64,000 nucleotides of DNA from Myxococcota bacterium (GCA_041288095.1 JBGGMJ010000022.1:21754-85753), one strand, 5' to 3'. Shown: positions 14,785-57,511, counted from the stretch's first letter. Notes: generated from the letters alone by a model not told the origin. Numbers and translations: made by a program.

Positions 14785-15192
14785 ATGGCGCTGCCTGAAA
14801 CCCAGCCGTTGCGTGCGGGTGTTTCTTCCTCGGGGGCCCTGCAGGGTCCTTCCACTCCCGCGACCCGCTCGTCGGTTGCGCTCGATCTCTCGGCTGGCTT
14901 CACCACGGGTGAGCACGGGAGCGCGCGCCTGTTGCTCCGCGACCGCGACTGGGACCGTCACCGTCACTATGATCGCAACGATCGCTGGCCGGGCCCGCAC
15001 CGTCCCGGTCCTTATCGCCCGTATCCGCCGCCATACTATCCGCCGCGTCCCTATCCGGTTCCGATCCCGATCCCCGGCTACCCCTCGCCGCTGCCGGGCC
15101 CGCTCCCGGGCGAGCGCGCCTGCTATCCCTGGGAAGCCGGGAGCTGGGGCTCGCGCCAAGACGTGTTCGGCCGCTGGTGGTGCCGCTGGTAG
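14785..15192 (+). CDS. Pro/Arg/Tyr-rich small hypothetical protein (135 aa)
   Basis: ATG 14785 with GGAGA RBS; fills the gap between two minus-strand genes; strongly patterned composition. Confidence 0.6.
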   Translation: MALPETQPLRAGVSSSGALQGPSTPATRSSVALDLSAGFTTGEHGSARLLLRDRDWDRHRHYDRNDRWPGPHRPGPYRPYPPPYYPPRPYPVPIPIPGYPSPLPGPLPGERACYPWEAGSWGSRQDVFGRWWCRW

Positions 15193-15229
15193 CAGCGGGT
15201 CTCTCGCTCGCCGCGAGGTTTCCTCGCGG

Positions 15230-15673
15230 CTACGAGTGATCGTCCTCGGCCTGCGGCATGCCGGGGATCTGCGCCAGCTCATGGGCGCGGTCCGCCGCCG
15301 CCTTCTTGCGCATCACCGTGAGGAACTCGCGGATGTAGCGCTCGATCGCCTTCTTGTCCTTGCGCGTGATCTTCACGAACTCGAGACCCATGCCCTGAGC
15401 GAAGGAGCTGCTGTCGTCGCTCTTGGCGGTCGACCAGCGCACGATGCACGTCGCGGTGATCGGTGTTTTTTGCTCGGGCAGGGTGAACGAGACGTCGAAC
15501 TCCGAGCCGCGCGGCATGGGGTTCGGCGTCGCGATGAACACGCCGTTGTTCGAGATGTTGGTGATGCGGCTCTTCAGGAGCACGTCGCGGCCCGGGTAGT
15601 CCGGCGCGATGAATACGCGCGACGGGACCCGGAAGTACCGCGACAGCACCGCGATGGGGATCTCGCCTTTCAC
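15230..15673 (-). CDS. PilZ domain protein (myxobacterial TIGR02266-like)
   Basis: RYFRVP...NISNNGVFI...F.LP...VRW...GMGLEF pattern. Confidence 0.85.
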   Translation of the reverse strand: MKGEIPIAVLSRYFRVPSRVFIAPDYPGRDVLLKSRITNISNNGVFIATPNPMPRGSEFDVSFTLPEQKTPITATCIVRWSTAKSDDSSSFAQGMGLEFVKITRKDKKAIERYIREFLTVMRKKAAADRAHELAQIPGMPQAEDDHS

Positions 15674-15693
15674 GCTTGGGGATCCTAACCGAA

Positions 15694-18312
15694 TCAGGCG
15701 CTGCGCGCAGCACCCTCGTGTTTGGTGAAGTCACGCAGTAACCAGGCACGCAGGCCGTTGGCCTCCCGGGTCGAGAGCTCGGCCTTGAGCCGCATGGCCT
15801 CCAGGGCCTTCTGGAGGGCGCGCTTGGCCTCTTCGACGGGGTGCTTGGTGAAGAAGGCGTCGACGTCTTCCTCGAGATCGGCCGGCAGCGACCCTGTGGA
15901 CTCGACCAAGCGCGCCACCCCCATCGACCCCACACGTGGGCCAATGGCCGACCAGTGCTTCTTCAGGAACTCCCAGGCGCCGCGCTGGGTCGCCTTGCGA
16001 GAGAGCATCGGGGCGATGACCACGCGGAGCTGCTCTTGCGGCACGGTTTCGTCGAGGCACATGGCGAGGACGCGGGCATTGGCCTTCTTGTCCTCGAAAG
16101 CGGACAGAGCGCCGAGGTAGCGTGCCTGCAGGTCGGGCGTGCTGCGGGCTTCCTTGCGCGCGAGATAGACGCGTACGTAGCTGTCGAGCAGGGCGTTGTC
16201 GCCTTTGACGGCCCCCAGCGCGACCAGTGTCCCGGCGAGGTTCGGATCGACGGCGGTCGGATCCTCCATTTCGCGCGCGACGAGCCGAGCCGCCTCGGCG
16301 AGCACCTTCGGGTCACGCCCGAGCTCACCCAGCGCGTAGACGATCGAGGCGCGACGTACGCCCTGTGCCTCGGGCTCGCCGTGGCGCGTCTCCATGCCCA
16401 GCGATTCGAGCTGCGGTGAGAAGAACCAGCGAACGAGCTCGGCGAAGCGCGCTTCCTCCGCCGGTCCGACGAGGTAGCTGTGAATCGAGCTCAAGGCCTT
16501 GGTCATCGAGCGCGTGACGATGTGATCGTTGTCGCCGCGGAAGGCCGAGAGCACGTCGAGGAAGGCGCCGACGTCACTTTCGCCATTGCGTACCAAGGCC
16601 CACTGATCCTCGATGAGCGTCATGCGCTCCGAGGGGGCAAGGTCCGCCACCGCGGTCAGTAGCCGTGCCCGCATTAGGGCATCCATCTGCACGCGATAGA
16701 AACCACCCGCCGAGGCGTTGGCGTGCACCCAGCGCACGCCCGCTGGGAGGTCGACGGTCTCCTCCGTGTTTCGCATCAAGTGGCGGTGCGTCTGGATCCC
16801 GTTTGGTCCGCTGTAGCGGATGACGATGGGAATGGTCCAGACCTGCGCCGTCCCCTTCTTCATCATGCCGGCGTCGGAGAAGAAGCGGCGCTGCTTCAAG
16901 GTGAGCGTCGTCTTGCCGCCGCTGTCCGCCATGCCGGGCGCGGCGCTCACTGTCACCAGCGGAAAGCCTTCTTGCTCGACCCAGCTACGCATGAGCTCGC
17001 CGACCGGCTCACCCGACGCGTCCGCAAGGCAGCGCCACAAGTCCGCGCCAGCAGCGTTCTTGTTCTTGAACTCGGTCTGGTAGGCCTTGATGCCTTTCTG
17101 GAACACGGCGTCGCCCAGGTAGGCCTCGCACATGCGCAGCACGGCGCAGCCCTTCTCGTAGGTAATCACATCGAAGAGCTCGGTCGCCTCGGCCGGCGTC
17201 TTCACCGGCGTGTACACCGGGTGCGTATTCACCAGCGCGTCGGCGGCGAGAGCGCTCTCCTTGGACTCGAGGTAGTCGTCCCACATGCGCCAGGTGGGCT
17301 GCCAGACGTCGACGGCCTTGTAGGCGATCCAGGTGGCGAAGGCCTCGTTGAGCCAGAGGTCGTCCCACCACTTCATGGTGACCAGGTTTCCGAACCACTG
17401 GTGCGCGAGCTCGTGCGCGATGACCTCCGCAATCCGTTTTTGCGACGTCCACGAGGTGGCGCCCGGCTGCATCAGGAGAAGATTCTGGCGGTAGAAGATG
17501 GCGCCGACGTTCTCCATGGCACCGGCGTCGAAGCCCGGAACCGCCACCTGATCGAGCTTCTGGTAGTTGTACTTCTGTCCGAAGTACTTCTCGTACCAAG
17601 GGAGCACCTGGGCGGTGACGTCCTGCGCGAAGTCGGTGAGCTTGCCTTTGCCGGGACCGGCCCAAGCTCGGCACGGGATCTTGGCGACGATGCGTTTCTT
17701 CGAAGCCTCGAGCTTGCCGATGGTGACCGCCACCAAATAGCTCGAGATGATGCGCGTCGCGCCGAAGGCGTGGGTCTCGGCCGGCTTGCCGCTTACGCGG
17801 ACTTTCTTCACGCCCTTGGGTACGCCGTTGGTGATCACCGTCAGGCCGGCGTCGGTGGTCACAGTCCATTGGAACGTGGCTTTGTGCTCCGGCTCGTCGA
17901 AGCAAGGAAAGATGCCGCGCGCGTCGGTCGCTTCGCATTGTGAGACGATGGCGCGTTCGTCACCGTCCTTGGCCAGGTAGAGGCCGTGCATGCTGGGGTT
18001 GAGCTTGCCCTTGAAGCTCGTGGTGATCTCGAACGCGCCCTTCGGCAGCTCTTTGGGGAAGCGCAGCTCGACCGTCTCGCGGTCTTTGCGGAGCTTTGCC
18101 TTACCTTTGATCTTCTTCTTGCCGACGATGGCGACGACGTCACCGACCGTGAGGTCGCGGGCGTGCAGCTCGACCACCTCCGAAGCGACCCGGCTCTTCA
18201 AGCTGATGCGCACGGTGCCGGAGAAGGTCATCTTCTTCGGGGTGGCGAAGAGGTGGATGGCGTAGGCGCGTGGCGTGATATCCTTCGAAAGCCGATAGTC
18301 CGTGGTCGTCAT
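15694..18312 (-). CDS. M1 family aminopeptidase with ERAP1-like C-terminal domain
   Basis: GAMEN, HELAH-x18-E (NEAFA) and YEKG motifs; start estimated at ATG 18312. Confidence 0.95.
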   Translation of the reverse strand: MTTTDYRLSKDITPRAYAIHLFATPKKMTFSGTVRISLKSRVASEVVELHARDLTVGDVVAIVGKKKIKGKAKLRKDRETVELRFPKELPKGAFEITTSFKGKLNPSMHGLYLAKDGDERAIVSQCEATDARGIFPCFDEPEHKATFQWTVTTDAGLTVITNGVPKGVKKVRVSGKPAETHAFGATRIISSYLVAVTIGKLEASKKRIVAKIPCRAWAGPGKGKLTDFAQDVTAQVLPWYEKYFGQKYNYQKLDQVAVPGFDAGAMENVGAIFYRQNLLLMQPGATSWTSQKRIAEVIAHELAHQWFGNLVTMKWWDDLWLNEAFATWIAYKAVDVWQPTWRMWDDYLESKESALAADALVNTHPVYTPVKTPAEATELFDVITYEKGCAVLRMCEAYLGDAVFQKGIKAYQTEFKNKNAAGADLWRCLADASGEPVGELMRSWVEQEGFPLVTVSAAPGMADSGGKTTLTLKQRRFFSDAGMMKKGTAQVWTIPIVIRYSGPNGIQTHRHLMRNTEETVDLPAGVRWVHANASAGGFYRVQMDALMRARLLTAVADLAPSERMTLIEDQWALVRNGESDVGAFLDVLSAFRGDNDHIVTRSMTKALSSIHSYLVGPAEEARFAELVRWFFSPQLESLGMETRHGEPEAQGVRRASIVYALGELGRDPKVLAEAARLVAREMEDPTAVDPNLAGTLVALGAVKGDNALLDSYVRVYLARKEARSTPDLQARYLGALSAFEDKKANARVLAMCLDETVPQEQLRVVIAPMLSRKATQRGAWEFLKKHWSAIGPRVGSMGVARLVESTGSLPADLEEDVDAFFTKHPVEEAKRALQKALEAMRLKAELSTREANGLRAWLLRDFTKHEGAARSA

Positions 18313-18335
18313 GCGGACATGAGGCTTAGCTGCGA

Positions 18336-19052: not shown

Positions 19053-19085
19053 CTCTTCCGCCTCGCAGGCGCTCTTAGAACCGGC

Positions 19086-22717: not shown

Positions 22718-25120
22718 CTAGAGCAGGTGTCGGGCGTCCGCCCAGACGAGCAGTGGCAGCGCCGTTGCCCACAGCTGCGTCGCGTTCCCCGGCCACGAAT
22801 CGTACGGCTCGTTCGGCTTGCCGACGAGACCCTTGGCGACGAGACGTCCGTTATCGAAGCCATAGCCGTAAAGCTCGGAGGTCTGAAGCGGACCGGCGGT
22901 GGCCGCGAGCTTCTTGATGATGCGCACCGTGTCGCGTGCGATGGCGGCTTCCTCTGGCTTGCCCGCGCGCTCGAGCATCTTCGCCTGGTGCGTGAGCGCG
23001 GCGACGCCCAAGGCCTCGAGCCAGGTCCACACCAGTGTTCCGTGATAGCGGCCTGGACCCATCATGTCGTAGAGGCGCGCGTCTCCGGCCAGCGCGGCGT
23101 TGGTAATGAGGATGCCGGCCTCGGTGGCAAGGCCCAAGGGATAGGGGAGGGTGATGAGATCGCAAATCGCGCGCACCGCCTCCGGCCGCGCCTGGCTACC
23201 CAACAGACCAAAGAGACCGTCGGACGACATCACGGGGATGCGGTTGCCCTTGGCGTCGAGTGAGACCGCCGGGAACGTGAGGCCGTCCTTGAAGCGGCCC
23301 GTGAGTGGCGAGCCGTTGATGAAATCGTCGATGTGCACGAACGGCTCGATGGTGCGGCTGCCGAAGAACGCCCGCTCCTCGTCGGTCGCGAGCTCCTTCA
23401 TGAAGAAACGCAACGCCTTGCGCATCTCGTCCTGGGTCATCTTCACGGTGAAAATGTCGCGGGCATGCGCGCGCCAGACCGTCGCGTAGCGCTCGAGATT
23501 GGCGCTCGGCAGGCCCATGAGCTTCGCGAGCGCGGCGCCCTTCTCGAGGGCCGAGGGGACGAGCTCGAGATCGATGCTGCTCGAGAAGACACCGCCGGCT
23601 TCACCCACCTCGGAGTCGCGCCAGCTGCCGACCGGCAGGCCGAGCATGAAGCGGACCATCTTCGTCGGATCGTCGGGGTCCTCGGCGAACCCCTTGGCTT
23701 GACGAGTGATGAAGCCCAGGCTTTTCTTGATGTCATCGGCGTTGCTCGCGACGGCGCGTCTCTCGGCGCCTTGCACCAAGTCCGTGATCGAGGATCGATT
23801 GCGGTCAACGAAGGCCTCGCGGGCCGCGGGGTCGAGCTTGGGATCGAGCAAATGCTCGGAGAGCACCGAGACGAGCATGAAGTCGTCGTCGACCATCTTG
23901 CGGTCACAAATGCGCTCTTCGCAGGTCGTAGGGTCGAGGGTGCCGCCATGCTTCTCGATGTGCTCGAGCCGCTCGTGCACCGCCTGATCGAGCAGCGACT
24001 CCTCGTGGGTCACCTTGCCGTCGGGGCCTAGACGCTCGAGCGCCGCCTGTAGGATGCCTTCGACCACCTTGGGATCGAGCAGCGGACGCAACATCTGCAC
24101 CGTCTGCAAGGTGTCGCGACCGAAGTAGGTGAGGAAGCGCCAGCCGCCGGCGAGCGCCTTCTCCTTGAAGACGAGCGACGAAAGATCTTCGAGGGCCCGT
24201 ACCGCCGCGTTGAGATTGGCGGTCTCTTCGGGCGTCAACAGACCTGCTTTGGCGCGCTCGAGATCGGTCTTGAGAGCTTGGCGGGCGGGACCATTGAGCA
24301 GCTCGAGTGGCGCGTAGGGAGTCAGCGGCGGCACGTCGGTGACGTAGGAGACGTCGATGCGCGGCTTGCCGGCGGCGGTCGCGGTCACGTGGTTGTTCGC
24401 ATTGACGGACAGGGTCGTGCCGGGACCCGCTTCGATGATCATGCGATGGAGATGGTGCGGTGAGCCGTCTGCCTTGCGGCCGACCGACTCGCGCTCGAAG
24501 ACGATGCGGGTCGCTGACTGCTCCACGATGCGCGAGCGAATGGACTTTTCGGGGAGGCCGAGCTTGCCCTGCATCTGCTCGCGGAGCGCCGTGCGATCGT
24601 CGTAGCCGAGGGTCGCGCGGTCGCGATGGGCGCGCGCGCTGTCCAGGAGCGGCGGCTCGAAGGTCACCGCGCCCTTCGCGTTGGCGCAGACACGTACCTT
24701 GGTGCCGGTAAGGCCGCCATCGCGGACGAGGAGGGGATTCGACGCCGAAAGATTCGTGACCCCAGTCTCCGAAGTCCACCACATGCCGCCGGCGATGTTG
24801 TTCGCGGGTTGGACGATGGTGACCATGCGCTTGGCCGCGTGCTTCGGATAGCTCTCGAGGACGATGTGCGCCTGGGTCTCCGGTGAGACGAAGACGAGAT
24901 TTTGCTGCATGCCCTCGCGCTGGCGGTCGCCGAGGTCACGCTGGAACACGCGTCGGGTCGCCCCGAGGTCGGGGAAGGTGACAGGGAGCTTGGCCGGGCC
25001 GCCGGGCTGGTCGAGGTCGCGTACCGAGGGTTTCTGACGCGAGCGCGTCGTACCGCGCTCCTGCGTGGCGTTGGTCGGCGAAGTGCCGGTAACCCCTTGG
25101 AAACGCCTATCGACGCGCAA
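22718..25120 (-). CDS. putative (alpha/alpha)6 glycoside hydrolase (glycogen debranching / amylo-1,6-glucosidase-like) with N-terminal extension
   Basis: AGGWRFLTYFGRDT, HEES, KMVDDD, WRDS, YHGTLVW, SEL and QLW motifs; TTG start with GGGGAAG upstream. Confidence 0.7.
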   Translation of the reverse strand: MRVDRRFQGVTGTSPTNATQERGTTRSRQKPSVRDLDQPGGPAKLPVTFPDLGATRRVFQRDLGDRQREGMQQNLVFVSPETQAHIVLESYPKHAAKRMVTIVQPANNIAGGMWWTSETGVTNLSASNPLLVRDGGLTGTKVRVCANAKGAVTFEPPLLDSARAHRDRATLGYDDRTALREQMQGKLGLPEKSIRSRIVEQSATRIVFERESVGRKADGSPHHLHRMIIEAGPGTTLSVNANNHVTATAAGKPRIDVSYVTDVPPLTPYAPLELLNGPARQALKTDLERAKAGLLTPEETANLNAAVRALEDLSSLVFKEKALAGGWRFLTYFGRDTLQTVQMLRPLLDPKVVEGILQAALERLGPDGKVTHEESLLDQAVHERLEHIEKHGGTLDPTTCEERICDRKMVDDDFMLVSVLSEHLLDPKLDPAAREAFVDRNRSSITDLVQGAERRAVASNADDIKKSLGFITRQAKGFAEDPDDPTKMVRFMLGLPVGSWRDSEVGEAGGVFSSSIDLELVPSALEKGAALAKLMGLPSANLERYATVWRAHARDIFTVKMTQDEMRKALRFFMKELATDEERAFFGSRTIEPFVHIDDFINGSPLTGRFKDGLTFPAVSLDAKGNRIPVMSSDGLFGLLGSQARPEAVRAICDLITLPYPLGLATEAGILITNAALAGDARLYDMMGPGRYHGTLVWTWLEALGVAALTHQAKMLERAGKPEEAAIARDTVRIIKKLAATAGPLQTSELYGYGFDNGRLVAKGLVGKPNEPYDSWPGNATQLWATALPLLVWADARHLL

Positions 25121-25154: not shown

Positions 25155-25181
25155 ATATCGGCAGGCCGATGGGCGGAGTTG
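25155..25181 (-). promoter_or_regulatory. candidate sigma-28-like promoter
   Basis: Minus strand CAAC-N15-GCCGATAT about 35 nt upstream of the TTG at 25120. Confidence 0.65.
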
Positions 25182-25199
25182 CGTAGGAGCTTCCGCCGC

Positions 25200-25931: not shown

Positions 25932-28157
25932 ATGGAAGACGCCTTGAACCTGTTGGATGGATTGGACGTCGACATTCCAGACGTCCCCCTCCCGGCAGCG
26001 CGTCCGCAGCAGCAAGCACCCGCGACTAATCCCGAGTTCTTCGGTCCTTATCAACTGATCGAAGAAGTCGGCGCCGGTGGTGTCGCCAAGGTGATGCGCG
26101 CGCGGCACATCCATCCGCGCTACGCCGAGACGACCTTCGCCATCAAGATTCTCCATCCCGAGCTCTCGCGCGATCCGAAGGTCGTGCAGCTCTTCCGGCA
26201 CGAGGCCTACGTGCTGTCGATGCTCAAGCATCCCAACATCGTGCAGACCTTCGAAGGCGGCGTGCAGGACGAAGAGCTGTTCATCGCCATGGAGTACATC
26301 GACGGTCGCGACCTCGAGAACATGCTCACGCGCTGTCAGAAGGCGAAGAGCACGGTCCCGATTCCCGTCGCCATGTACATCATCGGCGAGGTCTTGAAGG
26401 GACTGTCGTACGCGCACGACCTCTGTGACGGCGATGGCAACCGCCTGGCGCTCGTGCATCGCGACATCAACCCCGCGAACGTCTTTCTCTCGTACGACGG
26501 CCGCGTGAAGCTCGGTGACTTCGGCGTCGCGTCGATGACCGCGGGCCGCGCCGAGAAGTCCCGCGAGACAGCGGGCAAGGCGGGCTACTTCGCGCCCGAG
26601 CAGCTCGCCGGTGAGCCCGTCGATCAGCGCGCCGATCTCTTCTCCATGGGCGTCATGATGTACGAGGTCCTGTGCAACGAGCGCCTCTTCGACGGCGATG
26701 ACGCCGAGAAGATCATGCGCTTGAACCGCAAGGCGAAGATCCCGCGCCCCTCGAGAGTGAACCCCGAGATCCCGCAGGGCCTCGAGGACCTCATGCTCAA
26801 GGCGCTCGAGCGCAAGCCCAACGACCGCTTTCCCAATTCGCGCGCCATGTACTTCGCGTTGCGTCCGTTCATCCCCGATCCGTCGGGCATGGCGCTCGCG
26901 GTGGCGGCGATGGTCCGCAAGGTCTTCCTGCGCGAGCACATCCAGGAGCTGCAGCTGCGTGAAGGTCTCGCCGGCGGCGGTAGCGCCTCGCGTGGCTCCG
27001 GCCAGCGTATCGTGGTGCTCTCGGAAGACGAGCGCGCGCACGCCGCCTTCAGCGAGCTCCTGTCGTCGCGTGGTTACCGCGTCGACGTCGCGACGCGCAT
27101 CGAGCAGCTCGCCAGCATGGTGGTCGGCCAGCACGCGCCTAATGTCGTTTTGGCGGACGTGGCGCTGCCGTCGTTCAACGCCGAGCAATTCGTGCGCGCC
27201 CTCGCTCCGGCGCAGCAAACCATCCCGGTCGTCGCGGTGAGCGAGGGGCTCGACACCGCCTGGATCCGCAACGCCGACGCCATCGGCTCGGTCGACCTGT
27301 TGTTCAAGCCGTTCAACATCGAGCGCGTGCTCACCGCGGTTCGCGGCGCCGTGACCGGGGCCGCGCGCGTCGCCATCACCGAACCGGCGGTCACCGAAGC
27401 TCGTCCGGTATCGCGGACGAAAATCCTGGTGATGACGCGCGATAACTCGTTCACGCACATCATCGCGCAGGGCTTCGCCGACCGCGGCTACAGCGTCGAG
27501 ATCGTTTCGAACGGGTCCGAGGCCATCGAGCGCGCCGACCAGACGACCTTCGACGCATTCGTCTACGACGCCTTCCCGCCGTCGCCCGCCGACCGCTTCT
27601 TCGCGTCGCAAGTGCGCGGACGCCCGGGCATGGGGCTCGTGCCGATCCTCTACCTGGTGCCGGCCGAAACGCAGACGCAGATCGTCGGCCTCGACGCTGA
27701 CCGCAGCGCCGTTCGCTTGCGCGGCGACTCGACGGTGGTGCTCGCCGAGACCTTGAATCGCTTGCTCGCCGACACGCGCTTGGGCCGCTCGTTCATCCGC
27801 TACCCGACGACCTTTCCGCTCGAGCTGCGCTACGCCGGACGCGTCTTTGCCGCCGAGGCCATGGACATCTCGCGCGGCGGTCTCATGTTGCGCTGCGAGC
27901 AGATGCCGCCGGTCGGCGAAGAGGTCAGCGTGTCCCTGCGCTTCGACCAGAGCGGTCAGCCCGTCGAGGCCTCGGGCAGGGTCATCCGCGTCGATCTACC
28001 GCGTCACGAAGGCGAGCCGCCGGGCATCGGCGTGTCGTTCGAGCGCTTCGCCGGGCGCGGAGAAGCTCAGCTGATCGCGCACCTGGCCACGCTCGACCGG
28101 AACGCCCAGCAGGTCAAAACCATGATCATGGGTGTGCCAGCGCCAGCCCGGGCGTGA
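25932..28157 (+). CDS. Ser/Thr protein kinase fused to two receiver-like domains and a C-terminal PilZ domain
   Basis: GAGGVAKV, AIK, HRDINPAN, DFG, APE; REC-like (SEDE...ADVALP...KPF); second degenerate REC; PilZ (RSFIRYP...DISRGG...GIGVSF). Confidence 0.88.
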   Translation: MEDALNLLDGLDVDIPDVPLPAARPQQQAPATNPEFFGPYQLIEEVGAGGVAKVMRARHIHPRYAETTFAIKILHPELSRDPKVVQLFRHEAYVLSMLKHPNIVQTFEGGVQDEELFIAMEYIDGRDLENMLTRCQKAKSTVPIPVAMYIIGEVLKGLSYAHDLCDGDGNRLALVHRDINPANVFLSYDGRVKLGDFGVASMTAGRAEKSRETAGKAGYFAPEQLAGEPVDQRADLFSMGVMMYEVLCNERLFDGDDAEKIMRLNRKAKIPRPSRVNPEIPQGLEDLMLKALERKPNDRFPNSRAMYFALRPFIPDPSGMALAVAAMVRKVFLREHIQELQLREGLAGGGSASRGSGQRIVVLSEDERAHAAFSELLSSRGYRVDVATRIEQLASMVVGQHAPNVVLADVALPSFNAEQFVRALAPAQQTIPVVAVSEGLDTAWIRNADAIGSVDLLFKPFNIERVLTAVRGAVTGAARVAITEPAVTEARPVSRTKILVMTRDNSFTHIIAQGFADRGYSVEIVSNGSEAIERADQTTFDAFVYDAFPPSPADRFFASQVRGRPGMGLVPILYLVPAETQTQIVGLDADRSAVRLRGDSTVVLAETLNRLLADTRLGRSFIRYPTTFPLELRYAGRVFAAEAMDISRGGLMLRCEQMPPVGEEVSVSLRFDQSGQPVEASGRVIRVDLPRHEGEPPGIGVSFERFAGRGEAQLIAHLATLDRNAQQVKTMIMGVPAPARA

Positions 28158-28194
28158 TGGCCGTCAGTCACAGGTGCTCCTGAGTCGTTTTCAG

Positions 28195-28220
28195 GAACCC
28201 TCGGCCAAACGCGTCGATAC
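28195..28220 (+). promoter_or_regulatory. candidate sigma-28-like promoter
   Basis: GAAC-N14-GTCGATAC 29 nt upstream of ATG 28250. Confidence 0.5.
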
Positions 28221-28249
28221 ACGCTGCTCACCATCAGGATGGGTGTCTC

Positions 28250-29317
28250 ATGAGCGTGAGCGTAAGCACGGGACGCACGGGTGTGTCCGCGCCGGTCTTG
28301 GCCCTGTTGCCGGTAGCGCGGAACACCGCGGGAAATCAGGTCCTCGTCGCCCAGGCGTTGGCGCGTCGCGGCGTTCTCGATGGGCTCACGCGAGACCAGG
28401 CTCAGGTCGTCGTCGCCTTCACCGCCGAGAAGCTAGGGGCGCAGTTCGACGCCGAGCGCGACTTGAACGGGGGGCGCCTCGCGGAGCACGTCGCCGACAA
28501 GATCGTCGGCAAAGACGAGTTCGAGAAGGCGCAGAAGAAGTCGAATCGTAAGTCGTGGTGGGTCGCCGGCGGTTTCTTCGCGGGGGGCATGCTCGCCTCG
28601 GGCGCGCTGAATATCGGCGTCGACCTGGCCTTCAAGGCCATCAACCAGCCGTGGGCCGCGAGCGTCAACACCGCGCTGTCGCCCGCGCTCTTCGTGGTCA
28701 GCGCCGCGCTGGTCGGCGCCGTAACCGGTCTGTTCGTCGAGAAGCTGACGACGCCGGTCGCCGCCTGGTTCACGCGCCTGTCCTTCAAGGGCAGCCCCAT
28801 CAAGTCGCACCTCGACACCAAGCTGGGCGCGAGCTTGATCGATGCCTACAACGGCGCGAACCAGGTCGACGGTCGCGTCTTCTCGGCGGCGTCGACCCTG
28901 TCCTCGCTCATCGTCAACCTCGAAGGCACGCTTTCGGGCGACGGTGGGGTCCGCTCTCTCATCCGCCAGGCACGCGCCGGTGGTGCCGACAAGAAAGCGC
29001 TCTTGCAAGAAGCTGGTGAGCAGCTCGGCGGCAAGCTCATTCAAACCGAAGTGGCGCACTTCCACCTCGACCCGATGTTCACCGAGATCTTCCGGCTCGT
29101 GCACGCGAGCGTCGGCGGCATCTTCCGCAAGCTCGACCCGGCCGATCAGGACACGATCATCGAATCCGCTCTGGCGTACGTTCGTGAAGCGCGTCCGAAC
29201 GAACCGGATGGTCAGCGACCCGACACCGGCAAGGCCATCGAGACCTACTTCGCGCCGTTTCTCACCCGCTTGGTGAAGGGCGTGCCGAAGCCCACGGGTG
29301 GCGCCAGTGCAAGCTAG
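28250..29317 (+). CDS. hypothetical protein with a hydrophobic helical hairpin
   Basis: 355-aa ORF with typical codon usage; two Gly/Ala-rich hydrophobic segments; no Sec signal. Confidence 0.8.
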   Translation: MSVSVSTGRTGVSAPVLALLPVARNTAGNQVLVAQALARRGVLDGLTRDQAQVVVAFTAEKLGAQFDAERDLNGGRLAEHVADKIVGKDEFEKAQKKSNRKSWWVAGGFFAGGMLASGALNIGVDLAFKAINQPWAASVNTALSPALFVVSAALVGAVTGLFVEKLTTPVAAWFTRLSFKGSPIKSHLDTKLGASLIDAYNGANQVDGRVFSAASTLSSLIVNLEGTLSGDGGVRSLIRQARAGGADKKALLQEAGEQLGGKLIQTEVAHFHLDPMFTEIFRLVHASVGGIFRKLDPADQDTIIESALAYVREARPNEPDGQRPDTGKAIETYFAPFLTRLVKGVPKPTGGASAS

Positions 29318-47231: not shown

Positions 47232-48692
47232 TTACGCGGCGTCCTTCTTCTCGCGGTGGATGCGTGGCTTGAGGCTGCCCGCGAGGACGATGCGCTTGAT
47301 GCTGGCATCGTCAGGCACCGAGTGCACCAAGTCACGGAAGATCTTTTCGAAGATCGACGTGAGACCGCGGCCGCCCGTACCGCGCGCCATGCCGAGCTTC
47401 GCGAGCTCCTTGACGGCGCCCGGCTTGATCTCGAGCTCGACGCCTTCGAGCGCGAAGGTACCCTTGTATTGCTTGGCGAGCGCGTTGCGTGGCTCCGTGA
47501 TGATCTTCGCGAAATCGTCGAGGCTGAGGGGCATGAGGCCGGCGATCGCAGGGAAGCGTCCAACGAGCTCGCGCATCATGCCGAAGCGAACCAAGTCCAC
47601 CGGTTCGATGGATGAGTAGACCTCGCGCGCATCGACCTTGTTGCGCTCTTCGGCCGACTTGGGCTCACCACCGAAGCCAATCGAGGGTTTTGCGTCGACG
47701 TCTTCGGCTTGCTTGCGGGCCTTCCAGATGTCCTCGATGCCCGAGAAGGCACCGCCGGCGATGAACAAGACGTTGGTCGTGTCGAACTTGATGAACTCGC
47801 CATTGGGATGCTTGCGGCCGCCTCCCGGTGGCACGTTGAAGACACCGCCTTCGACCATCTTGAGCAGCATCTGCTGCACGCCGGCGCCGGAGACGTCGCG
47901 GGTGATCGAGGCGCTCTCGCCTTCGGGCTTACGCTTCTTGTCGAACTCGTCGATGAAGAGGATGCCGCGCTGGGCTTTCTCGACGTCGTTGTCCGCCGCG
48001 GCGATCAGCTTCAGGAGCATGCCTTCGACGTCTTCGCCGACGTAGCCGGCTTCGGTGTACGAGTTGGCGTCCACGATGTCGAAGGGCACGTCGAGGAGCT
48101 TCGCGATGCTGCGCGCGATGAGCGTCTTGCCGACACCGGTCGGGCCGATGAGGAGGATGTTCGCCTTCTCGAGGATGTCGTCGGGTACCGGCACGCCGCG
48201 CGCCTTGCAGTCATCGATCTGCGCGGTGCGCTTCAAGTGCTGATAGACCGCGTTCGCGACCACCTTCTTCGCGAGCGCCTGTCCCCAGACGTACTGGTCG
48301 AGGTGCTTGACGATCTGCGACGGCGTCGGGATGTCGGCGAGCAGCGGGTTGCGCGAGATCGGCAACGGTTGGATCGAGGCGACCTGGCCGGCGAGCAGAG
48401 GGTGGAGCACCATGCCGTTGAAGCGGCTGGCGTCAGCGCCCGCTTTAGCGTTCAGCTCTTCGACGGCGCTCAGGGTCTTGAGGAAGGTCTCGGGTCCGTG
48501 GGCGTGAACCGCGCCGCGAACCGCATCCAATGCGTCCTTGAAGGCTTCGACGTTGGGGTGGCCTTCGGCGCCCTTCAACACGGTCTCGAGCTCGGTTTGG
48601 TTCGCCGGCGCCTTTTCGGGGACCAACGAGCCCTTTCTGAGGGCGAGGTACGCTTCACTACCAACAAGAGGAAGAATGCCAAAACTGCTCAA
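47232..48692 (-). CDS. clpX: ClpX-like AAA+ ATPase lacking the C4 zinc-binding domain, with a novel N-terminal domain
   Basis: LDQYVWGQ, GPTGVGKT, GYVGEDVE, IDEFDK, RDVSG.GVQQ.LLK, RKHP and IGF loop; TTG 48692 with GGAGG RBS; no CxxC pairs in the N-terminus. Confidence 0.9.
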   Translation of the reverse strand: MSSFGILPLVGSEAYLALRKGSLVPEKAPANQTELETVLKGAEGHPNVEAFKDALDAVRGAVHAHGPETFLKTLSAVEELNAKAGADASRFNGMVLHPLLAGQVASIQPLPISRNPLLADIPTPSQIVKHLDQYVWGQALAKKVVANAVYQHLKRTAQIDDCKARGVPVPDDILEKANILLIGPTGVGKTLIARSIAKLLDVPFDIVDANSYTEAGYVGEDVEGMLLKLIAAADNDVEKAQRGILFIDEFDKKRKPEGESASITRDVSGAGVQQMLLKMVEGGVFNVPPGGGRKHPNGEFIKFDTTNVLFIAGGAFSGIEDIWKARKQAEDVDAKPSIGFGGEPKSAEERNKVDAREVYSSIEPVDLVRFGMMRELVGRFPAIAGLMPLSLDDFAKIITEPRNALAKQYKGTFALEGVELEIKPGAVKELAKLGMARGTGGRGLTSIFEKIFRDLVHSVPDDASIKRIVLAGSLKPRIHREKKDAA

Positions 48693-48728
48693 AACAGCCT
48701 CCAAATCGCTGCCATGTCGTCAGTTTTC

Positions 48729-48754
48729 CTATCGGCACGATTTTTCGGAGGTTG
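48729..48754 (-). promoter_or_regulatory. candidate sigma-28-like promoter for the clpX-like gene
   Basis: Minus strand CAAC-N14-GCCGATAG. Confidence 0.7.
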
Positions 48755-48794
48755 TGTGCTGGACCCAAGATTTATTGATCTGATGGCACTTCAT

Positions 48795-48879: not shown

Positions 48880-50226
48880 ATGACGGTATCGCGTGTTCCC
48901 CCGGGGCAGCCGGGGGCGGCCTCGTCGACGCGGGAATCCACGCCCACCCGGGAGCATCCGGCCGGGCCCGCCATGCAAACCGGCAATGTCGAGGCTGGCT
49001 CGAAGGCCGGCACTCTGAGCTTGCCGGGTGGCAAGACCGTCCTGATGTGCGTGGTCGATGCCGATGGCGCGCCGACCGTTCATCGCGCCGGCGCCGAGTC
49101 GGAGTCCGCTGTGGCGGGCGATGCCGGTCTCAAGACCTTCAAGGTCGCCGACATTCTGCGGCCGGGCTTGCCGCTCACGCCCTACGGCATGCACACCTTC
49201 GACGCCCTCCATGGTCCGATATCGCCCGCGGCGACCACGGCGCTCCACGTGCTGCACGCGACGCTCGCGGGGGCACTCCCGGGCGCTGTTTCCCAGGACC
49301 TGACCCATCGCAACCGCTTGGCCGCCGCGGTCTACACGCTGGCGCGGCAATACGCCGCGCTGGCCAAGGCCATCAACTTCGAGAGTGCTTCGTCCGCCGC
49401 ACGGGCTCGGGCCCTGGTGGTCGAGGCGGCGCAGGTTCTCGACGCGCTCGGCTCGCAGCTCTCCCGTAACTCGATGTTCGCCCTGCTCGACACGGCACAA
49501 TACGCCGTCTTGTCCGCCATGGCGAACAGACCATCCGTCGTCACGAAAGCAGTCGAGACGCTCGTCGACCTGACCGCGACGCGGTTCTCGCAGACCGCCG
49601 GCTGGCTCGGCGGAGCGCGAGGCGAAAGCTGGGAGAGCCAGGAGCGCACGCGTGCCTACGAGAACTTCAACGGGCCGCTCCACTTCGTGAGCGCCTACCG
49701 GCGCAATCAACACTATCCCTTCGACGAGCTGCCGCTCGGGGCGCTTGCGTTTCTCGGTACCGAGGCGGGTCCGACCCTGAAACAGGGCATCGTCGACTTC
49801 GTCCTCAAGGCCGACAAGGGTCTCGGGCTGCTCATCGAGCTGCACGCAGCGCGCTTCATCTCGGGAAAACCCGCGGGCGAGGCAAAACCGCCGATGGGAG
49901 CTCAGGGTGACCTGGAGCGCCTGCTCGTCGGCTTGGCGCACTTCAAGCGCGACGACAGCACCGGCTATTCGGCGGCGCGCGCCTTCGCGCAGACCGCGGC
50001 GATCTACGATGCGGTACTCGAGAAGGCGGAGTCACCCGCGATGCATCGCCTGGTCACCGACTGCGCCCTGACCGCTCTCGACCTGTATGCCCATGGCAAG
50101 GTCCGCTCGGCCGAAGCCGACGAGGCAGCGCGGGAGCTCGTCGCGCGCCTGAGAAGGCGCGGCCCCGATGAGATCACGAACGCGCGTATCGGCCGGCTCC
50201 TTACCGCGCGCGCTCAGGCCCGCTAA
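48880..50226 (+). CDS. hypothetical protein, low-complexity N-terminus and helical body
   Basis: Long ORF with typical codon usage; start uncertain (48853/48868/48880). Confidence 0.75.
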   Translation: MTVSRVPPGQPGAASSTRESTPTREHPAGPAMQTGNVEAGSKAGTLSLPGGKTVLMCVVDADGAPTVHRAGAESESAVAGDAGLKTFKVADILRPGLPLTPYGMHTFDALHGPISPAATTALHVLHATLAGALPGAVSQDLTHRNRLAAAVYTLARQYAALAKAINFESASSAARARALVVEAAQVLDALGSQLSRNSMFALLDTAQYAVLSAMANRPSVVTKAVETLVDLTATRFSQTAGWLGGARGESWESQERTRAYENFNGPLHFVSAYRRNQHYPFDELPLGALAFLGTEAGPTLKQGIVDFVLKADKGLGLLIELHAARFISGKPAGEAKPPMGAQGDLERLLVGLAHFKRDDSTGYSAARAFAQTAAIYDAVLEKAESPAMHRLVTDCALTALDLYAHGKVRSAEADEAARELVARLRRRGPDEITNARIGRLLTARAQAR

Positions 50227-54700: not shown

Positions 54701-55008
54701 CTTGCCGTTTGCGCTTGCGACCCATCCTCATGACGTCGATCGCGTTCATCATGGGCGTCTGGCCGCTGGTGGCCTCACACGGCGCCGGCTCCGAGATGCG
54801 CCACGCCATGGGTGTCGCCGTCTTCGCCGGCATGATCGGCGTGACATTTTTCGGATTGTTGCTCACGCCCGTCTTCTACGGCGTCATCCGCCGCTTGGTG
54901 GACAAGCGCGAGCGGGCGGCCTTCAAGCCCGTCCTCTATCGCGTACCGGAGGACGGTGTCGCCAGTAATGACGACGGCCGTCCAGCGGGTTTTTTCACGG
55001 CAGGCTAG
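51781..55008 (+). CDS. RND efflux permease (HAE1, MexF/OqxB-like)
   Basis: FFIDRPVFA, GIVVDDAIVVVENVER, KNAILIVEFA and RLRPILMTS. Confidence 0.96.
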   Translation: MRIARFFIDRPVFAAVISIIIFVAGAISVFQLPISEYPEVVPPTVVVRAMYPGANPKVIAETVAAPLEQEINGVENMLYMSSESTSDGAMTLTVTFRIGTNLDTAQVQVQNRVAQAQVRLPEDVRRFGVTTRKSTPDLTMVVHIVSPDGRYDETYLRNYAALQIKDTLARIPGMGEVQLFGSGDYAMRIWLDPRKLAAKNLTASDVVAALREQNVQVAAGTLAQQPAPNGESFQLAINTRGRLTTESEFADVIIKASESEGTVRVADVARVQLGADQYALRALLNNQAAVAIPIFQTPGSNALELSNQVRASMEELSKSFPDGVAYRIAYDPTRFVRASIEEVVRTLFEALALVVLVVLIFLQTWRASIIPIAAVPVSLVGTFAVMQLLGFSINALSLFGLVLAIGIVVDDAIVVVENVERNIEAGLSPIEATRKAMDEVSGPIIAIALVLCAVFLPIAFISGLTGQFYRQFALTIAISTVISAFNSLTLSPALAAKLLLAHDAPKDRLSRGIDKLFGWFFRPFNRFFAAASNRYVGAVRTLLRRSSLALVVYGGLLALTYVGFDKVPTGFVPGQDKQYLVAFAQLPDASSLSRTDEVIRRMGDIAKETPGVADTIAFPGLSIAGFTNSPSAGIVFVGLTSFEERRAPELSGNAIAATLNQKFGAIDEAFVAIFPPPPVQGLGTTGGFKLYIEDRGDAGLEALYEATQGFVGAGRQAPELAGLFSGYQVNVPQLYADVDRAKAKTAGVPLTNVFETMQANLGSLYVNDFNRFGRTFRVTVQADQGFRERPEDITALKTRNLAGEMVPLGTLVTVRPAHGPDRVSHYNGYPAAEVNGSAAPGYSSGQALASVTRIAANTLPIGTKFEWTDLTYQQIMAGNTAALIFPLCVLLVFLVLAAQYESWSLPLTVILIVPMCLLAAITGVWLDGGDNNLFTQIGLFVLVGLACKNAILIVEFARDEQKKGVNAFHAVLEACRLRLRPILMTSIAFIMGVWPLVASHGAGSEMRHAMGVAVFAGMIGVTFFGLLLTPVFYGVIRRLVDKRERAAFKPVLYRVPEDGVASNDDGRPAGFFTAG

Positions 55009-55553
55009 CTGCGGCGCTTCTGGTCGCGTCGCTGGTGCTCCATGAACACCTGCCACACGTGTTTCACTTCGCTCGCGCCCTCGACGTTGTCGTCGGCCAT
55101 GCCCAGGCGCTCGACCTCCGCTTCATGCGGGTCGGTGCCGGAGATGAAGACGTGACCCTTGCGCATCTCGGCTTCGATGGCGCCGACTTTGCGGACCACT
55201 TGCTCGGGTGCCGTGAGGGCGCCGAGTTGGCCGGCTTGGGCGTGGGCGATGTCCGCTTGAGCGACCTGCTGCGACTTCGTCGCGCGGGGCTCCTTGGCGC
55301 TCGCCATGGCGTGATGCCAATGGTGAGTGTCGTTCGCTAGCTGTTGCGCCTTGACCAGGGCCTCTTCGCGGTTGTCGTTCTTGACGGTCGCGTCTTGGCG
55401 TCGCGAGGCATTTTGGTCGGTGTTCTTCCAGGCATCGTACTGCTGAATCTCTACCAGCCATTCGTCGTTCAGCGTTGCATGCATGTGTCGGGTCTCCTGG
55501 ACCTGAACACGGCGTTGGGCACGCAAGCCGTCGATTGATATATCGGAATCCAT
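55005..55553 (-). CDS. hypothetical protein (182 aa, hydrophilic)
   Basis: Strong AAGGAG RBS; fills the intergenic gap; no recognisable domain. Confidence 0.7.
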   Translation of the reverse strand: MDSDISIDGLRAQRRVQVQETRHMHATLNDEWLVEIQQYDAWKNTDQNASRRQDATVKNDNREEALVKAQQLANDTHHWHHAMASAKEPRATKSQQVAQADIAHAQAGQLGALTAPEQVVRKVGAIEAEMRKGHVFISGTDPHEAEVERLGMADDNVEGASEVKHVWQVFMEHQRRDQKRRS

Positions 55554-55636
55554 AGCTCCTTATCCTTGAGTGCCCGCTATCGAGCGGGCGTTCTGCAAAT
55601 ACACACCCGACATTCGCATCGAGCGTTACGACCGGC

Positions 55637-55662
55637 TTATCGGGTGCGCCAGCGGATCGTTG
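55637..55662 (-). promoter_or_regulatory. candidate sigma-28-like promoter
   Basis: Minus strand CAAC-N14-CCCGATAA. Confidence 0.7.
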
Positions 55663-55740
55663 CGCCTCGATCTGTGACAATTTCGCGCAAAGAAAAACCC
55701 CCGCCAGACCGCATAATTACGGCCCCGGCGTAGAGTCAGA

Positions 55741-55767
55741 AGACACGCGGACGCGAGCGCACGATAA
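55741..55767 (+). promoter_or_regulatory. weaker candidate sigma-28-like promoter
   Basis: AGAC-N15-CACGATAA 28 nt upstream of ATG 55796; good -10, poor -35. Confidence 0.4.
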
Positions 55768-55795
55768 CGCGTCGGCCGGGGAAAGGTGTGTCCTG

Positions 55796-57511
55796 ATGAG
55801 GATTGGCGACGGCAACAGGCCGGCCAGCGTCGGTGCGAGCGGTAGCCAAGTGGCCGGAAACGGCGCCCAGAGCGTGCCCGCACAGGCGATTTCCGACCCC
55901 CGGCCGGCCCCACGCTTCGTGAGCGAGCCGCGAACGACCAGCGGTGCCCGGCGTGTGACGCTCCCAACCGCGACCCTGCCCGCCGACAGCTACGCCATCC
56001 CCGCGCAGCTCTTTCGCGAGATGGCGCCGCTCTATCGCGCCTCGAAAGAAGAGGGTGCTATTCGCGACTATGCGCGGAGCCTCGCGCGCACCGCCAACAT
56101 CGAGCTCTGGGCCGGGAAGCTCGAGATTCGCGGGCCCGACCGCGCCGGCAACATTGCTATCAAGGTGCCCGGCACTGGCCGATTCGCCAAAGCGGACAGG
56201 CCGGTCGTGGCTCTGCAAGCGCACATGGACATGGTGCTCGCCGCCGACGCCGTGCCCCCCGGCGGCGACCTCAAGGCTTACTTCAAGGCGAACCCGGTCA
56301 AGTTGACCGAGGTCGACGGCGTGCTGCGATCGACGGAGCCACGCACGAGCATCGGCGCCGATGATGCGATCGGCGTCGGTCTGGCCCTGCGGTACGTCAT
56401 GGATCCACGCATCGAGCACCCGCCGCTCGATATCTTGCTGACCACCAGCGAAGAGCAGGGTCTCACCGGGGCCCGTGAGCTCGAGCACGAGGCGATGGGC
56501 TTCGCACCCGACGTGCTGGTGTCGCTCGACGCCCTGGACAAGAAGAACGAAGGCTTACTCACCGTCGGCTCGCTCGGCGGCCGTTCCAACGTCTTCACCG
56601 GGTCCGTGGCGACGACACCCGTGGGGTGGACCGAGCGTGCCGTCGAAGTGGTCGCGACCGGTCTCACCGGCGGGCACTCCGGCACCGAAATTCATCTACC
56701 ACGTGGCAACGGTGTGGTCTGGGCGGCCGAGCTGCTCAAGGCGGCGCGCGCCGTGGCCCCGGCTCTGCGCTTGTCCACGATGGCGGTCGGCGACGCGCTC
56801 AACAAGATCCCGGCGAGCGGCAAGGTCGTGATCGTTGGTCCGATGAGCGCTCCTTTTTCGGAGGTCCGTGCCGCGGTGGAGAAGCGCTTCAAGGAGCTCT
56901 GCGACGCCTCGGGCGAAAAGAACGCCGTCATGACCGCGCAGCAGGTCAAAAAGCCCGAGACGGCCATGACCGTCGAAGCGACCGAGCAGCTCACCAGCGC
57001 CATCCTGGCGACGCCGAACGGGGTGATTCACCGCGCCGATCCGAACGGCCCCGAGCTCCCTAATGGTGTTCGCACCTCGTCGAACCTCGCCCGCTTCTTG
57101 CTCGCCGACGGCAAGCTCGAGCTTGGCGTCATGAGCCGCTCCTTCGACGGTCCCGAGCTTCAGGCGACCGCGCGGCGCATCGCCGACAGCTTGAGCAGGG
57201 GCTTCGCGGCGTCGCCGCAGCTCACATCGTCTGGTTACGATCCCTGGCTCGAAGACACGCGCGGGGCGTTGGTGACGCGAGTCCTCAACGAGGCACGCAT
57301 CGACGGCAAGCCGGCGTTCACCCGGGTCGGCTTCGGCAACTTCGGCATCGAGACCAACATCTGGCGTGGCATCTTCCCGAGCTTGCCGATGCTGGCCATC
57401 GGCGCCGACACCGACGGCGAGCACTCGTCGCGTGAGCAAGTCTCGCTGGCGTCGATCGCCATGACCGCCAAGCGCTTGGACGCGTTGCTACAGGTGCTCG
57501 CCTCGCCGTAG
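55796..57511 (+). CDS. pepD: M20 family PepD-like dipeptidase with N-terminal extension
   Basis: LQAHMDMV, GADDAIG, SEEQG, SLD, GGHSG, TSSNL, GIET and HSSRE motifs; about 65 extra low-complexity N-terminal residues. Confidence 0.8.
   Translation: MRIGDGNRPASVGASGSQVAGNGAQSVPAQAISDPRPAPRFVSEPRTTSGARRVTLPTATLPADSYAIPAQLFREMAPLYRASKEEGAIRDYARSLARTANIELWAGKLEIRGPDRAGNIAIKVPGTGRFAKADRPVVALQAHMDMVLAADAVPPGGDLKAYFKANPVKLTEVDGVLRSTEPRTSIGADDAIGVGLALRYVMDPRIEHPPLDILLTTSEEQGLTGARELEHEAMGFAPDVLVSLDALDKKNEGLLTVGSLGGRSNVFTGSVATTPVGWTERAVEVVATGLTGGHSGTEIHLPRGNGVVWAAELLKAARAVAPALRLSTMAVGDALNKIPASGKVVIVGPMSAPFSEVRAAVEKRFKELCDASGEKNAVMTAQQVKKPETAMTVEATEQLTSAILATPNGVIHRADPNGPELPNGVRTSSNLARFLLADGKLELGVMSRSFDGPELQATARRIADSLSRGFAASPQLTSSGYDPWLEDTRGALVTRVLNEARIDGKPAFTRVGFGNFGIETNIWRGIFPSLPMLAIGADTDGEHSSREQVSLASIAMTAKRLDALLQVLASP

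Follow-up and report, generated by a model that had tools for sequence, protein, structure and literature searches.

A 64,000-nucleotide stretch of the genome of a Myxococcota bacterium (GCA_041288095.1 JBGGMJ010000022.1:21754-85753; hereafter the window) carries, between positions 14785 and 57511, a set of genes whose products begin with polar, low-complexity leaders, together with a promoter-like motif, (A/G)CAAC-N15/16-CCGATA. A preliminary description of this DNA read the products as effectors exported through a secretion system of type III (T3SS) and made partly from housekeeping enzymes, under sigma-28 control; it saw no export machinery in the window. The locus raises the question of whether these genes belong to a secretion program whose machinery lies elsewhere in the genome and, if so, which of the products would be cargo. 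We analyzed the source assembly (G000; 5.85 Mb, 212 contigs, 90% complete; its contigs are denoted C) alongside relatives that include three congeners (G001, G002, and G003). We observed a promoter motif, its link to T3SS genes, genes for sigma and anti-sigma factors, a compositional bias in the N termini of motif-driven proteins, and replacement of a secretion signal in two enzyme families. The earlier reading is partly supported: its broad outline holds, and several of its details do not.

A promoter-like motif defines a large regulon

The motif was found 5' of three window genes, encoding an 800-residue protein, a ClpX-like ATPase, and a 182-residue protein. Exact matches number 138 genome-wide, compared with 0 to 12 for seven control patterns with changed spacers or scrambled boxes. 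Over the 138 sites the consensus extends to CGCAAC-N15/16-GCCGATA(A/C), with a spacer of 15 in 95 and of 16 in 43, and a coding-type open reading frame (ORF) starts no more than 350 nucleotides (nt) downstream of 124 of them, at a median distance of 30 nt. A two-block matrix returned 248 sites with a score of at least 15, against 9 in a reversed-genome null. Each of the three congeners has 119 to 177 exact sites (3 to 11 for the backwards control); counts are 25 to 80 in other families of the order and at control level in many genomes of the phylum. The presence of a T3SS was ruled out as the cause of motif abundance: FHIPEP was found in 39 of 41 genomes, with motif counts from control level to 177. 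We conclude that the motif CGCAAC-N15/16-GCCGATA(A) is genuine. Its −10 box, (G)CCGATA(A/C) over the 138 sites, is of the sigma-28 type (GCCGATAA); its −35 box is CGCAAC and does not match the TAAA(G) of sigma-28 promoters.

When the matrix built from genome-wide sites was applied to window promoters, only three scored high. These are TACGCAAC-N16-CCGATA (25156-25185, minus strand; score 25.5), 35 nt 5' of the TTG start of the 800-residue protein gene and found at the same place in G002 (25.7); CACACAAC-N15-CCGATA (48730-48758, minus strand; 21.1), 25 nt 5' of the ClpX-like gene and likewise kept in G002 (20.8); and GGCGCAAC-N15-CCGATAA (55638-55666, minus strand; 22.6), 84 nt 5' of the gene for the 182-residue protein. 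A weak motif-like site, GGAAC-N15-TCGATAC (28191-28223, plus strand; 6.6), lies 5' of a gene for a 355-residue protein, and the best score for a 135-residue ORF was 4.4. Scores were below zero upstream of the genes for a 583-residue protein, a 448-residue protein (−5.1), and a PepD-like peptidase (−2.8). The preliminary claim that the motif heads every one of these genes was too wide.

Two other words were tried and set aside: GGCGGGGGTTTT, which recurs 5' of two genes, shows no enrichment (6 matches, 5.05 expected), and GCCGATA alone is barely so within the window (10 matches against 5.35 expected, 10 being reached in 4 of 100 shuffles). An antisense motif-like site with an unusual spacer of 14 (31000-31022, minus strand; score 17.6) lies inside the 3' end of the gene for the 583-residue protein, and may be a chance match or an antisense promoter.

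The motif precedes the type III secretion operon

The export machinery that the window does not display is present elsewhere in the genome, with one copy each of sctV, sctR, and sctU and an operon that includes sctJ, sctL, sctN, sctO, sctQ, sctR, sctS, and sctT. The operon, on the minus strand of contig C92, begins with genes for a weakly SctI-like protein, SctJ, a FliG-like protein, two unassigned proteins, SctL, SctN, and further unassigned proteins, and continues with a DUF4781/RelA-SpoT-like protein, an HD protein, SctO, a GNAT protein, a FliK-like protein, Kup, SctQ (FliM plus FliN), FliO, SctR, SctS, and SctT. A motif site with a score of 18.2 lies 111 nt 5' of its first gene. The same two boxes occupy the same place in all three congeners (18.7 to 19.5), with diverged spacers, and weaker sites are found in two other families of the order (G011, 14.5; G005, 13.2). 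The regulon genes thus share with the T3SS operon a promoter motif that is kept there in five other genomes, as would be expected of co-regulated substrates. We consider both the regulon and its connection with the T3SS genes to be well supported. Within C92:6713-13679 the operon is interrupted by genes for four proteins that are not T3SS components: the potassium transporter Kup, an acetyltransferase of the GNAT type, a protein with an HD domain, and a 779-residue DUF4781 protein with a weak RelA/SpoT-like region.

A second link is found at C41:2102-5144, where sctU is followed, in this order, by a gene for an unassigned 170-residue protein, a gene for a tetratricopeptide repeat (TPR) chaperone resembling LcrH/SycD, and a motif-driven, uncharacterized gene that is cut by the contig end. 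The TPR protein scores best against the LcrH/SycD translocator chaperone family, at 76 bits, which does not reach the cut-off of 104.8, and the motif site directly behind its gene scores 22.9. A chaperone of this kind was unexpected, because the T3SS* of Myxococcus is described as having no translocon parts. In the matrix scan, the motif was not found 5' of sctU, sctV, or either of two FliA-like genes described below. The sctV gene lies away from the main operon (C31:3248-8564), adjoining genes for a PP2C phosphatase and a sigma factor; the latter was rejected as the regulon's sigma factor, being RpoH.

Sigma-28 paralogues in a genome that has lost its flagellar genes

A search of the G000 genome found no flagellin or rod genes. 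Each congener has five or six rod/hook genes, a flagellin at 145 to 149 bits, a second FHIPEP gene, a stronger FlgM, and a true FliA (214 to 215 bits) encoded inside the flagellar cluster. The G000 segment C79:21491-36094 is colinear with G002:C2:110000-162000 across 52 kb except for two missing blocks of 13.6 and 23.8 kb; these blocks are the flagellar genes of G002, and contig C79 is unbroken there. By this comparison, the flagellar genes of G000 are truly gone, through two clean deletions, rather than unassembled. The small island between the two deletions is kept in G000 and holds a motif-driven gene for a 111-residue protein.

The flagellin promoter in all three congeners has the canonical sigma-28 form, TAAAGGTTT or TCAAGGTTT (AGGTTCT in G003)-N11-(G/A)CGATGAC, and the regulon matrix scores below 5 upstream of flagellin in G001, G002, G003, G005, and G011. 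Since a true FliA and a canonical flagellin promoter exist separately, three relatives of sigma-28 and two types of promoter coexist in the genus.

Two G000 genes have FliA/WhiG as their best family (166 and 164 bits). One, on C127, is followed directly by a gene for an 80-residue FlgM homologue (31.2 bits; cut-off, 25). The distance between the other one and the T3SS operon is 11 kb in G000 and 12 kb in G001, the arrangement being syntenic. In a model of the sigma/FlgM-like complex, the C terminus of the FlgM-like protein sits on sigma region 4 (score, 0.65, compared with 0.01 for the best of three controls; 51 of 78 solved complexes reach the mark applied, as do 2 of 108 mismatched pairs). 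Contact agreement between runs was at least 43% and the predicted local distance difference test (pLDDT) of the partner at least 53. We take the model to indicate likeness rather than binding, because a like complex has already been solved. We infer that a FliA paralogue reads the CGCAAC motif. The likely reader is a paralogue rather than the flagellar FliA, and the flagellin promoter of the congeners is of another type.

Regulon proteins tend to have polar N termini and seldom carry signals

Genome-wide, the regulon comprises roughly 150 to 250 genes, mostly for uncharacterized proteins, many of them strain or genus specific. For comparison of N termini we used 156 genes with a site score of at least 15 and an ORF of at least 80 codons, and residues 2 to 31 were set against those of about 3,200 to 3,700 other ORFs under three start rules. 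Regulon proteins have more Ser, Thr, and Pro (25.1%, against 18.0 to 19.6% in the background; P of 2e-11 or smaller) and fewer hydrophobic residues (23.4%, against 28.5 to 29.1%), and a signal-like hydrophobic stretch is present in 4.5% of them, compared with 16 to 22% of the background. The enrichment for polar, signal-less N termini anticipated in the preliminary description therefore holds genome-wide. A PGLP-like leader motif was also considered and is not enriched (5 of 156 regulon proteins, 52 of 3713 others).

Few of the 60 best-scoring members belong to Pfam families, and the families found are chiefly hydrolases with one member each. Three are alpha/beta hydrolases and two are subtilases; the other families are represented once each and include glycoside hydrolase family 3 (GH3), peptidase M64, trypsin, polyhydroxybutyrate (PHB) depolymerase, adenosine deaminase, and amine oxidase. 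Further members are a Ser/Thr kinase, a homoserine dehydrogenase, and a glutathione peroxidase. Ten long members were inspected: five have no family and one has only a sub-threshold TrkA_N match, and in the GH3, M64, Kelch/PD40, and serpin-like proteins the domain starts only past 70 to 230 polar residues. The serpin-like protein is partial (C134:41728-43230) and has a 70-residue polar leader. Several leaders are additions to cytoplasmic-type proteins.

The GH3/BglX enzyme allows a comparison across homologues. A hydrophobic stretch lies in the first 40 residues of 94 of the 112 distant homologues that start with Met; four close homologues have instead a polar leader of about 100 residues.

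The 800-residue glycosidase-like protein

A second such family is represented in the window by the 800-residue protein (22718-25120, minus strand), which has a TTG start, a disordered segment at residues 1 to 42, a β-sandwich, and an (α/α)6 barrel. The TTG start and the promoter are kept in G002; G003 has an ATG one codon upstream. No Pfam match was found, and a PDB sequence search gave nothing usable. The structural model has a pLDDT of 84, with residues 1 to 42 below 50, and a Foldseek search identified similarity to the GH63 enzyme YgjK (4e-10), amylo-1,6-glucosidase (1.6e-9), and GH116, with E values of 4e-10 to 1e-6 and low TM-scores of 0.3 to 0.5. The combination of a β-sandwich N-terminal domain and an (α/α)6 barrel in the model is that of the clan GH-G/L fold (GH63, GH133, and GH116-like), so a glycosidase-like identity is indicated.

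The protein is present in two of five genomes queried, and 13 of the 37 homologues found were aligned. Among the shorter distant homologues (680 to 695 residues), four of five begin with Sec or lipoprotein-type signals, as judged by eye; where these lie, the clade of the window protein has a polar leader that begins M-RVG-R, spans about 55 residues, and is poorly conserved. In both the 800-residue protein and the GH3 families, a polar leader stands where distant homologues have Sec signals. On the strength of its motif, conserved start, predicted disordered leader, and replaced signal, we rank the 800-residue protein first among the effector candidates of the window.

Other candidates in the window

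All seven leader peptides listed in the preliminary description stand at ORF starts (14785-15192, plus; 22718-25120, minus; 28250-29317, plus; 29298-31049, plus; 48880-50226, plus; 55005-55553, minus; and 55796-57511, plus), with TTG as the start codon of 22718-25120 and GTG as that of 29298-31049. A signal-like hydrophobic N terminus, Sec or lipoprotein-like, was found in none of the seven proteins, nor in the ClpX-like protein. Window G+C content is 64 to 70%. Third-position G+C in five leaders is 0.81 to 0.84, compared with 0.60 to 0.67 in the same frame just upstream; together with the starts kept in congeners, this suggests that the leaders are translated, as the effector proposal would require.

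The ClpX-like protein (47232-48704, minus strand; 490 residues) matches NF003745 with 413.7 bits (cut-off, 359) over model positions 57 to 395 of 418. It does not have the zinc-finger domain, its match beginning at model position 57 to 62, compared with 5 to 7 for canonical copies, and has another N-terminal domain of about 120 residues instead, for which an Atlas look-up returned no usable match. The GYVG pore loop and the IGF ClpP-docking loop are present in the alignment. Two canonical, full-length clpX copies are encoded on C38 and C77, so this is a separate paralogue; a second zinc-finger-less paralogue is on C149, with a weaker motif (13.8). No polar leader is present. Of the three enzymes recognized in the preliminary description, the ClpX-like, PepD-like, and glycosidase-like identities stand, and the N-terminal addition ascribed to ClpX is a domain in place of the zinc finger, not an added leader. 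The protein is probably a cytoplasmic, co-regulated unfoldase.

The 182-residue protein (55005-55553, minus strand) is a polar, helix-prone orphan with a pI of 6.1; its gene combines the motif with a strong ribosome-binding site, AAGGAG, before the ATG, and no Pfam or NCBIfam match was found for it. The 355-residue protein (28250-29317, plus strand) consists, by sequence and hydropathy, of a polar leader, a glycine-rich hydrophobic hairpin, and a helical domain, and is encoded by the first gene of a two-gene module; the second gene encodes the 583-residue protein (29298-31049, plus strand), which alignment identifies as a tandem duplicate of the 355-residue module. Three paralogous pairs exist in the genome, with motif scores of 24.9 for the pair on C16 and 15.4 for that on C212, and the window pair is probably a further operon of the regulon. 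The family of the 583-residue protein has 24 matches at an E value of 0.001 or lower among 1.84 billion representatives. Its model is all-helical and of low confidence (pLDDT, 59), with no usable PDB sequence match and no Foldseek match at an E value of 0.001 or lower; a wide VIA structure search gave generic helical hairpins, with Z scores up to 9.4 over residues 364 to 437, a result that we rejected as below the level that is meaningful for helical proteins. The genes for these hairpin proteins are adjacent, as they would be in an SctE/SctB translocator pair, which would also have a class II TPR chaperone gene alongside; no chaperone gene lies beside the window pair and no fold match was obtained, and to call the pair translocator-like is a guess. 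As cargo candidates, the 182-residue protein and the 355/583-residue pair appear weaker than the 800-residue protein.

Two further leader-bearing proteins lie outside the regulon, as judged from their promoters. The 448-residue orphan (48880-50226, plus strand) has an 88-residue polar leader and is encoded divergently from the ClpX-like gene, with no motif of its own; it was found in 1 of 40 relatives (G002), where residues 1 to 41, including the MTVSRV start, are conserved and residues 42 to 88 are absent. The PepD-like M20 peptidase paralogue (55796-57511, plus strand) has an N-terminal extension of about 70 residues; its TIGR01893 match (196.3 bits, below the cut-off of 343.75) runs from residue 71. 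One paralogue is encoded on C210, and the gene was not found in any of the three congeners. The remaining leader belongs to the 135-residue ORF (14785-15192, plus strand), rich in Pro, Tyr, and Arg, with codon-position G+C of 0.70, 0.66, and 0.77 and no family match; that it is a real gene is doubtful.

Is the regulon a set of T3SS cargo?

The reading that we favor, and to which we assign about an even chance, is that a sigma-28-like regulon accompanies the T3SS and that many of its products are T3SS cargo. One of the two FliA paralogues would read the CGCAAC-N15/16-GCCGATA(A) promoter, and a large share of the regulon products would enter the T3SS through their disordered N termini and act outside the cell. 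The cargo would be mostly lineage-specific proteins with some hydrolases, having N termini rich in Ser, Thr, Pro, and Ala and free of Sec signals; in the window, the 800-residue protein would come first, with the 182-residue protein and the 355/583-residue membrane-hairpin pair behind it, and the ClpX-like ATPase would stay in the cytoplasm as a co-regulated unfoldase. Export of the regulon proteins through the T3SS is plausible on present sequence comparisons. Three conditions that the preliminary description named as fatal to its type III effector reading do not hold: a T3SS is encoded in the genome, the leaders look translated, and canonical clpX copies exist apart from the one in the window. 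The shared motif and the N-terminal bias also favor that reading; against it, the PepD-like and 448-residue proteins have no motif, and the ClpX-like protein seems less likely to be cargo.

Several observations weigh against this reading. A strong motif precedes three of the eight proteins named in the preliminary description. Scores for the sigma factors and for FlgM are modest, neither sigma factor reaching the curated FliA cut-off of 189.6; the sigma factor for the regulon would be a FliA paralogue and not flagellar FliA; and the likeness to SctI at the head of the T3SS operon is weak (E value, 0.008). The ClpX-like protein, having no leader and keeping its IGF loop, looks like a cytoplasmic partner rather than cargo. 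Beyond their Ala/Pro/Thr composition, the leaders share no peptide motif. The N-terminal bias may mirror the many orphans in the regulon, disorder being common in orphan proteins: for 124 of the 156, the genome encodes no paralogue outside the regulon. Among the 22 leader-bearing proteins that do have paralogues within the genome, a signal-bearing paralogue was found for 3. About 7 of the 156 carry ordinary signals, and one a Tat-like motif, which means that T3SS cargo does not make up the whole regulon. Regulon genes do not cluster (36 of 156 have another member within 5 kb, 32.5 being expected) and are not grouped near the T3SS. No effector chaperone was seen beside the window genes, where no systematic search was made.

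Much of this would also fit a lifestyle regulon without type III export, which we think less probable but still a serious contender. The FliA paralogue would then be a global regulator of attack, starvation, or development, with the T3SS operon as one target; most products would be cytoplasmic or use other routes, and the polar N termini would be the ordinary disorder of young, lineage-specific proteins. The regulon is indeed large and scattered, includes a cytoplasmic-type ClpX paralogue, a Ser/Thr kinase, a homoserine dehydrogenase, and a glutathione peroxidase, has some members with Sec or Tat signals, and offers few leader-bearing members with signal-bearing paralogues. Bdellovibrio provides a parallel, with TTAAG-N16-CCGATA at 92 of 140 attack-phase promoters, including those of proteases and many uncharacterized genes, according to the available part of the report (PMC3627812). 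Such a program does not readily account for two normally signal-bearing families that gained a conserved polar leader, which goes beyond plain loss of a signal, nor for a fall in signal-like N termini to 4.5%, stronger than a general program predicts, nor for the motif site directly behind a translocator-type chaperone gene. It is improbable, in our judgment, that the leaders address another apparatus co-regulated with the T3SS, such as the tip of a Tad/Kil-type pilus, a contractile injection system, or vesicles. Contractile injection systems use N-terminal disordered packing signals. The needle-less T3SS of Myxococcus xanthus works with the Kil pilus, its effectors being only postulated in the accessible portions of PMC12075869 and PMC12428579; here, the T3SS is the only secretion machine seen under the motif, and no search was aimed at others.

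Two alternatives concern the motif and the leaders themselves. That the motif belongs to an extracytoplasmic function (ECF)-type sigma factor, with AAC in the −35 box and a CG-rich −10 box, rather than to a sigma-28 relative, seems to us highly unlikely. CGCAAC resembles ECF −35 boxes, and the overall form GCAAC-N17-GAT resembles that of actinobacterial SigD promoters; set against this, GCCGATA(A) is a sigma-28 −10 box, and the genome encodes two FliA-like sigma factors that have no flagellar work, one with an FlgM-like partner and one in synteny with the T3SS operon in both G000 and G001. We give even less weight to the idea that the leaders are artifacts of GC-rich sequence, with start codons placed too far 5'. 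Long open frames do extend upstream in this DNA of 66% G+C, the PepD-like gene has in-frame GTG codons (19, 27, 42, and 54) that could be the true start, and the 135-residue ORF is doubtful; yet the promoter sites lie just 25 to 84 nt before the called starts of three motif genes, starts are conserved in congeners, third-position G+C in the leaders is of the coding type, and leaders are kept in independently called homologues.

A fuller version of the favored T3SS-cargo reading would join all these elements, and we regard it as rather unlikely to be right in its entirety. After loss of the flagellum, a leftover sigma-28/FlgM switch would gate a predator-style T3SS program: export of the FlgM-like protein would free the FliA paralogue, which would turn on more machines and more than 100 fast-evolving effectors, including glycosidases retargeted from the Sec route and four paralogous membrane-hairpin pairs acting as translocators or pore formers.

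Relation to known systems

The FliA/FlgM class III regulon of Escherichia coli and Salmonella resembles the present one in its −10 box, GCCGATAA, in pairing a FliA-family sigma factor with an adjacent FlgM-family gene, and in using sigma-28 to drive genes whose products leave via a type III export gate. It differs in that the −35 box here is CGCAAC rather than TAAA(G), the genes driven are nonflagellar, and the promoter also drives the basal-body/ATPase operon, a class II operon in flagellar systems.

The nearest regulatory precedent, by analogy, is the attack-phase FliA motif of Bdellovibrio bacteriovorus, where a sigma-28-type motif heads a very large, mostly nonflagellar set. There, in the part of the report available (PMC3627812), flagellar FliA itself is the proposed regulator, the cell is flagellate, and a nonflagellar T3SS does not appear; here, the likely reader is a paralogue with its own −35 box, and the T3SS operon lies inside the regulon.

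Thiery et al. reportedly described the needle-less T3SS* of M. xanthus in 2022. The system here is likewise a nonflagellar Myxococcota T3SS that keeps flagellar-type parts (FliO, FliM/N-like, and FliG-like); unlike T3SS*, it has a SycD/LcrH-like chaperone gene beside sctU, and a promoter links the machine to a set of candidate cargo. Reviews and an article from 2025, in their available portions, describe a Myxococcus T3SS* that has no secretin, needle, or translocon and speak of its effectors only as potential or hypothetical ones (PMC10849154, PMC12428579, and PMC12075869), and FliO in a myxobacterial nonflagellar T3SS has already been published (PMC12248157, as far as its accessible text goes). 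A literature search, which took in articles and not supplementary tables, found no report of a sigma-28-type regulon or FlgM partner for a myxobacterial T3SS.

A promoter shared by the machine and about 150 to 250 genes yields a list of candidate cargo that can be ranked, and a candidate regulator pair in the FliA paralogue and the FlgM-like protein; the motif offers a simple route to the same logic in cultured relatives. The locus would be a case of a sigma-28 paralogue recruited to a nonflagellar secretion system, and the genome is a natural case of a flagellum lost and a nonflagellar T3SS kept. If the joint version were true, a myxobacterial T3SS would have its first effector repertoire and its first regulatory logic.

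Surrounding genes

Most other genes between 14785 and 57511 are ordinary and mutually unrelated. They encode aminopeptidase N, a methyltransferase, two ATP-binding cassette (ABC) exporters, a kinase-receiver-PilZ protein, a transglutaminase, a HemN-like radical S-adenosylmethionine (SAM) enzyme, two transporters, a GH13 amylase, citrate synthase, a serpin, a 2-oxoglutarate (2OG) oxygenase, an ABC importer, a PKD protein, ArsR, and a resistance-nodulation-division (RND) pump. The 43-kb span is for this reason not an island, and the finding depends wholly on the motif. A direct-repeat search of the window returned chance families only. Sec-type signals accompany absence of the motif in the GH13 amylase at 36608 (plain Sec) and a 1005-residue PKD protein at 47143 (lipoprotein-like).

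A few neighbors deserve mention. The Ser/Thr kinase-receiver-PilZ fusion gene (25932-28157, plus strand) lies just 5' of the 355/583-residue pair, and a stand-alone PilZ gene (15230-15730, minus strand) adjoins the doubtful 135-residue ORF. The serpin gene (39538-40806, minus strand) is full length and has no motif. A MutH-family endonuclease gene (11311-11964, plus strand; PF02976, 1.2e-25) is unexpected for a myxobacterium.

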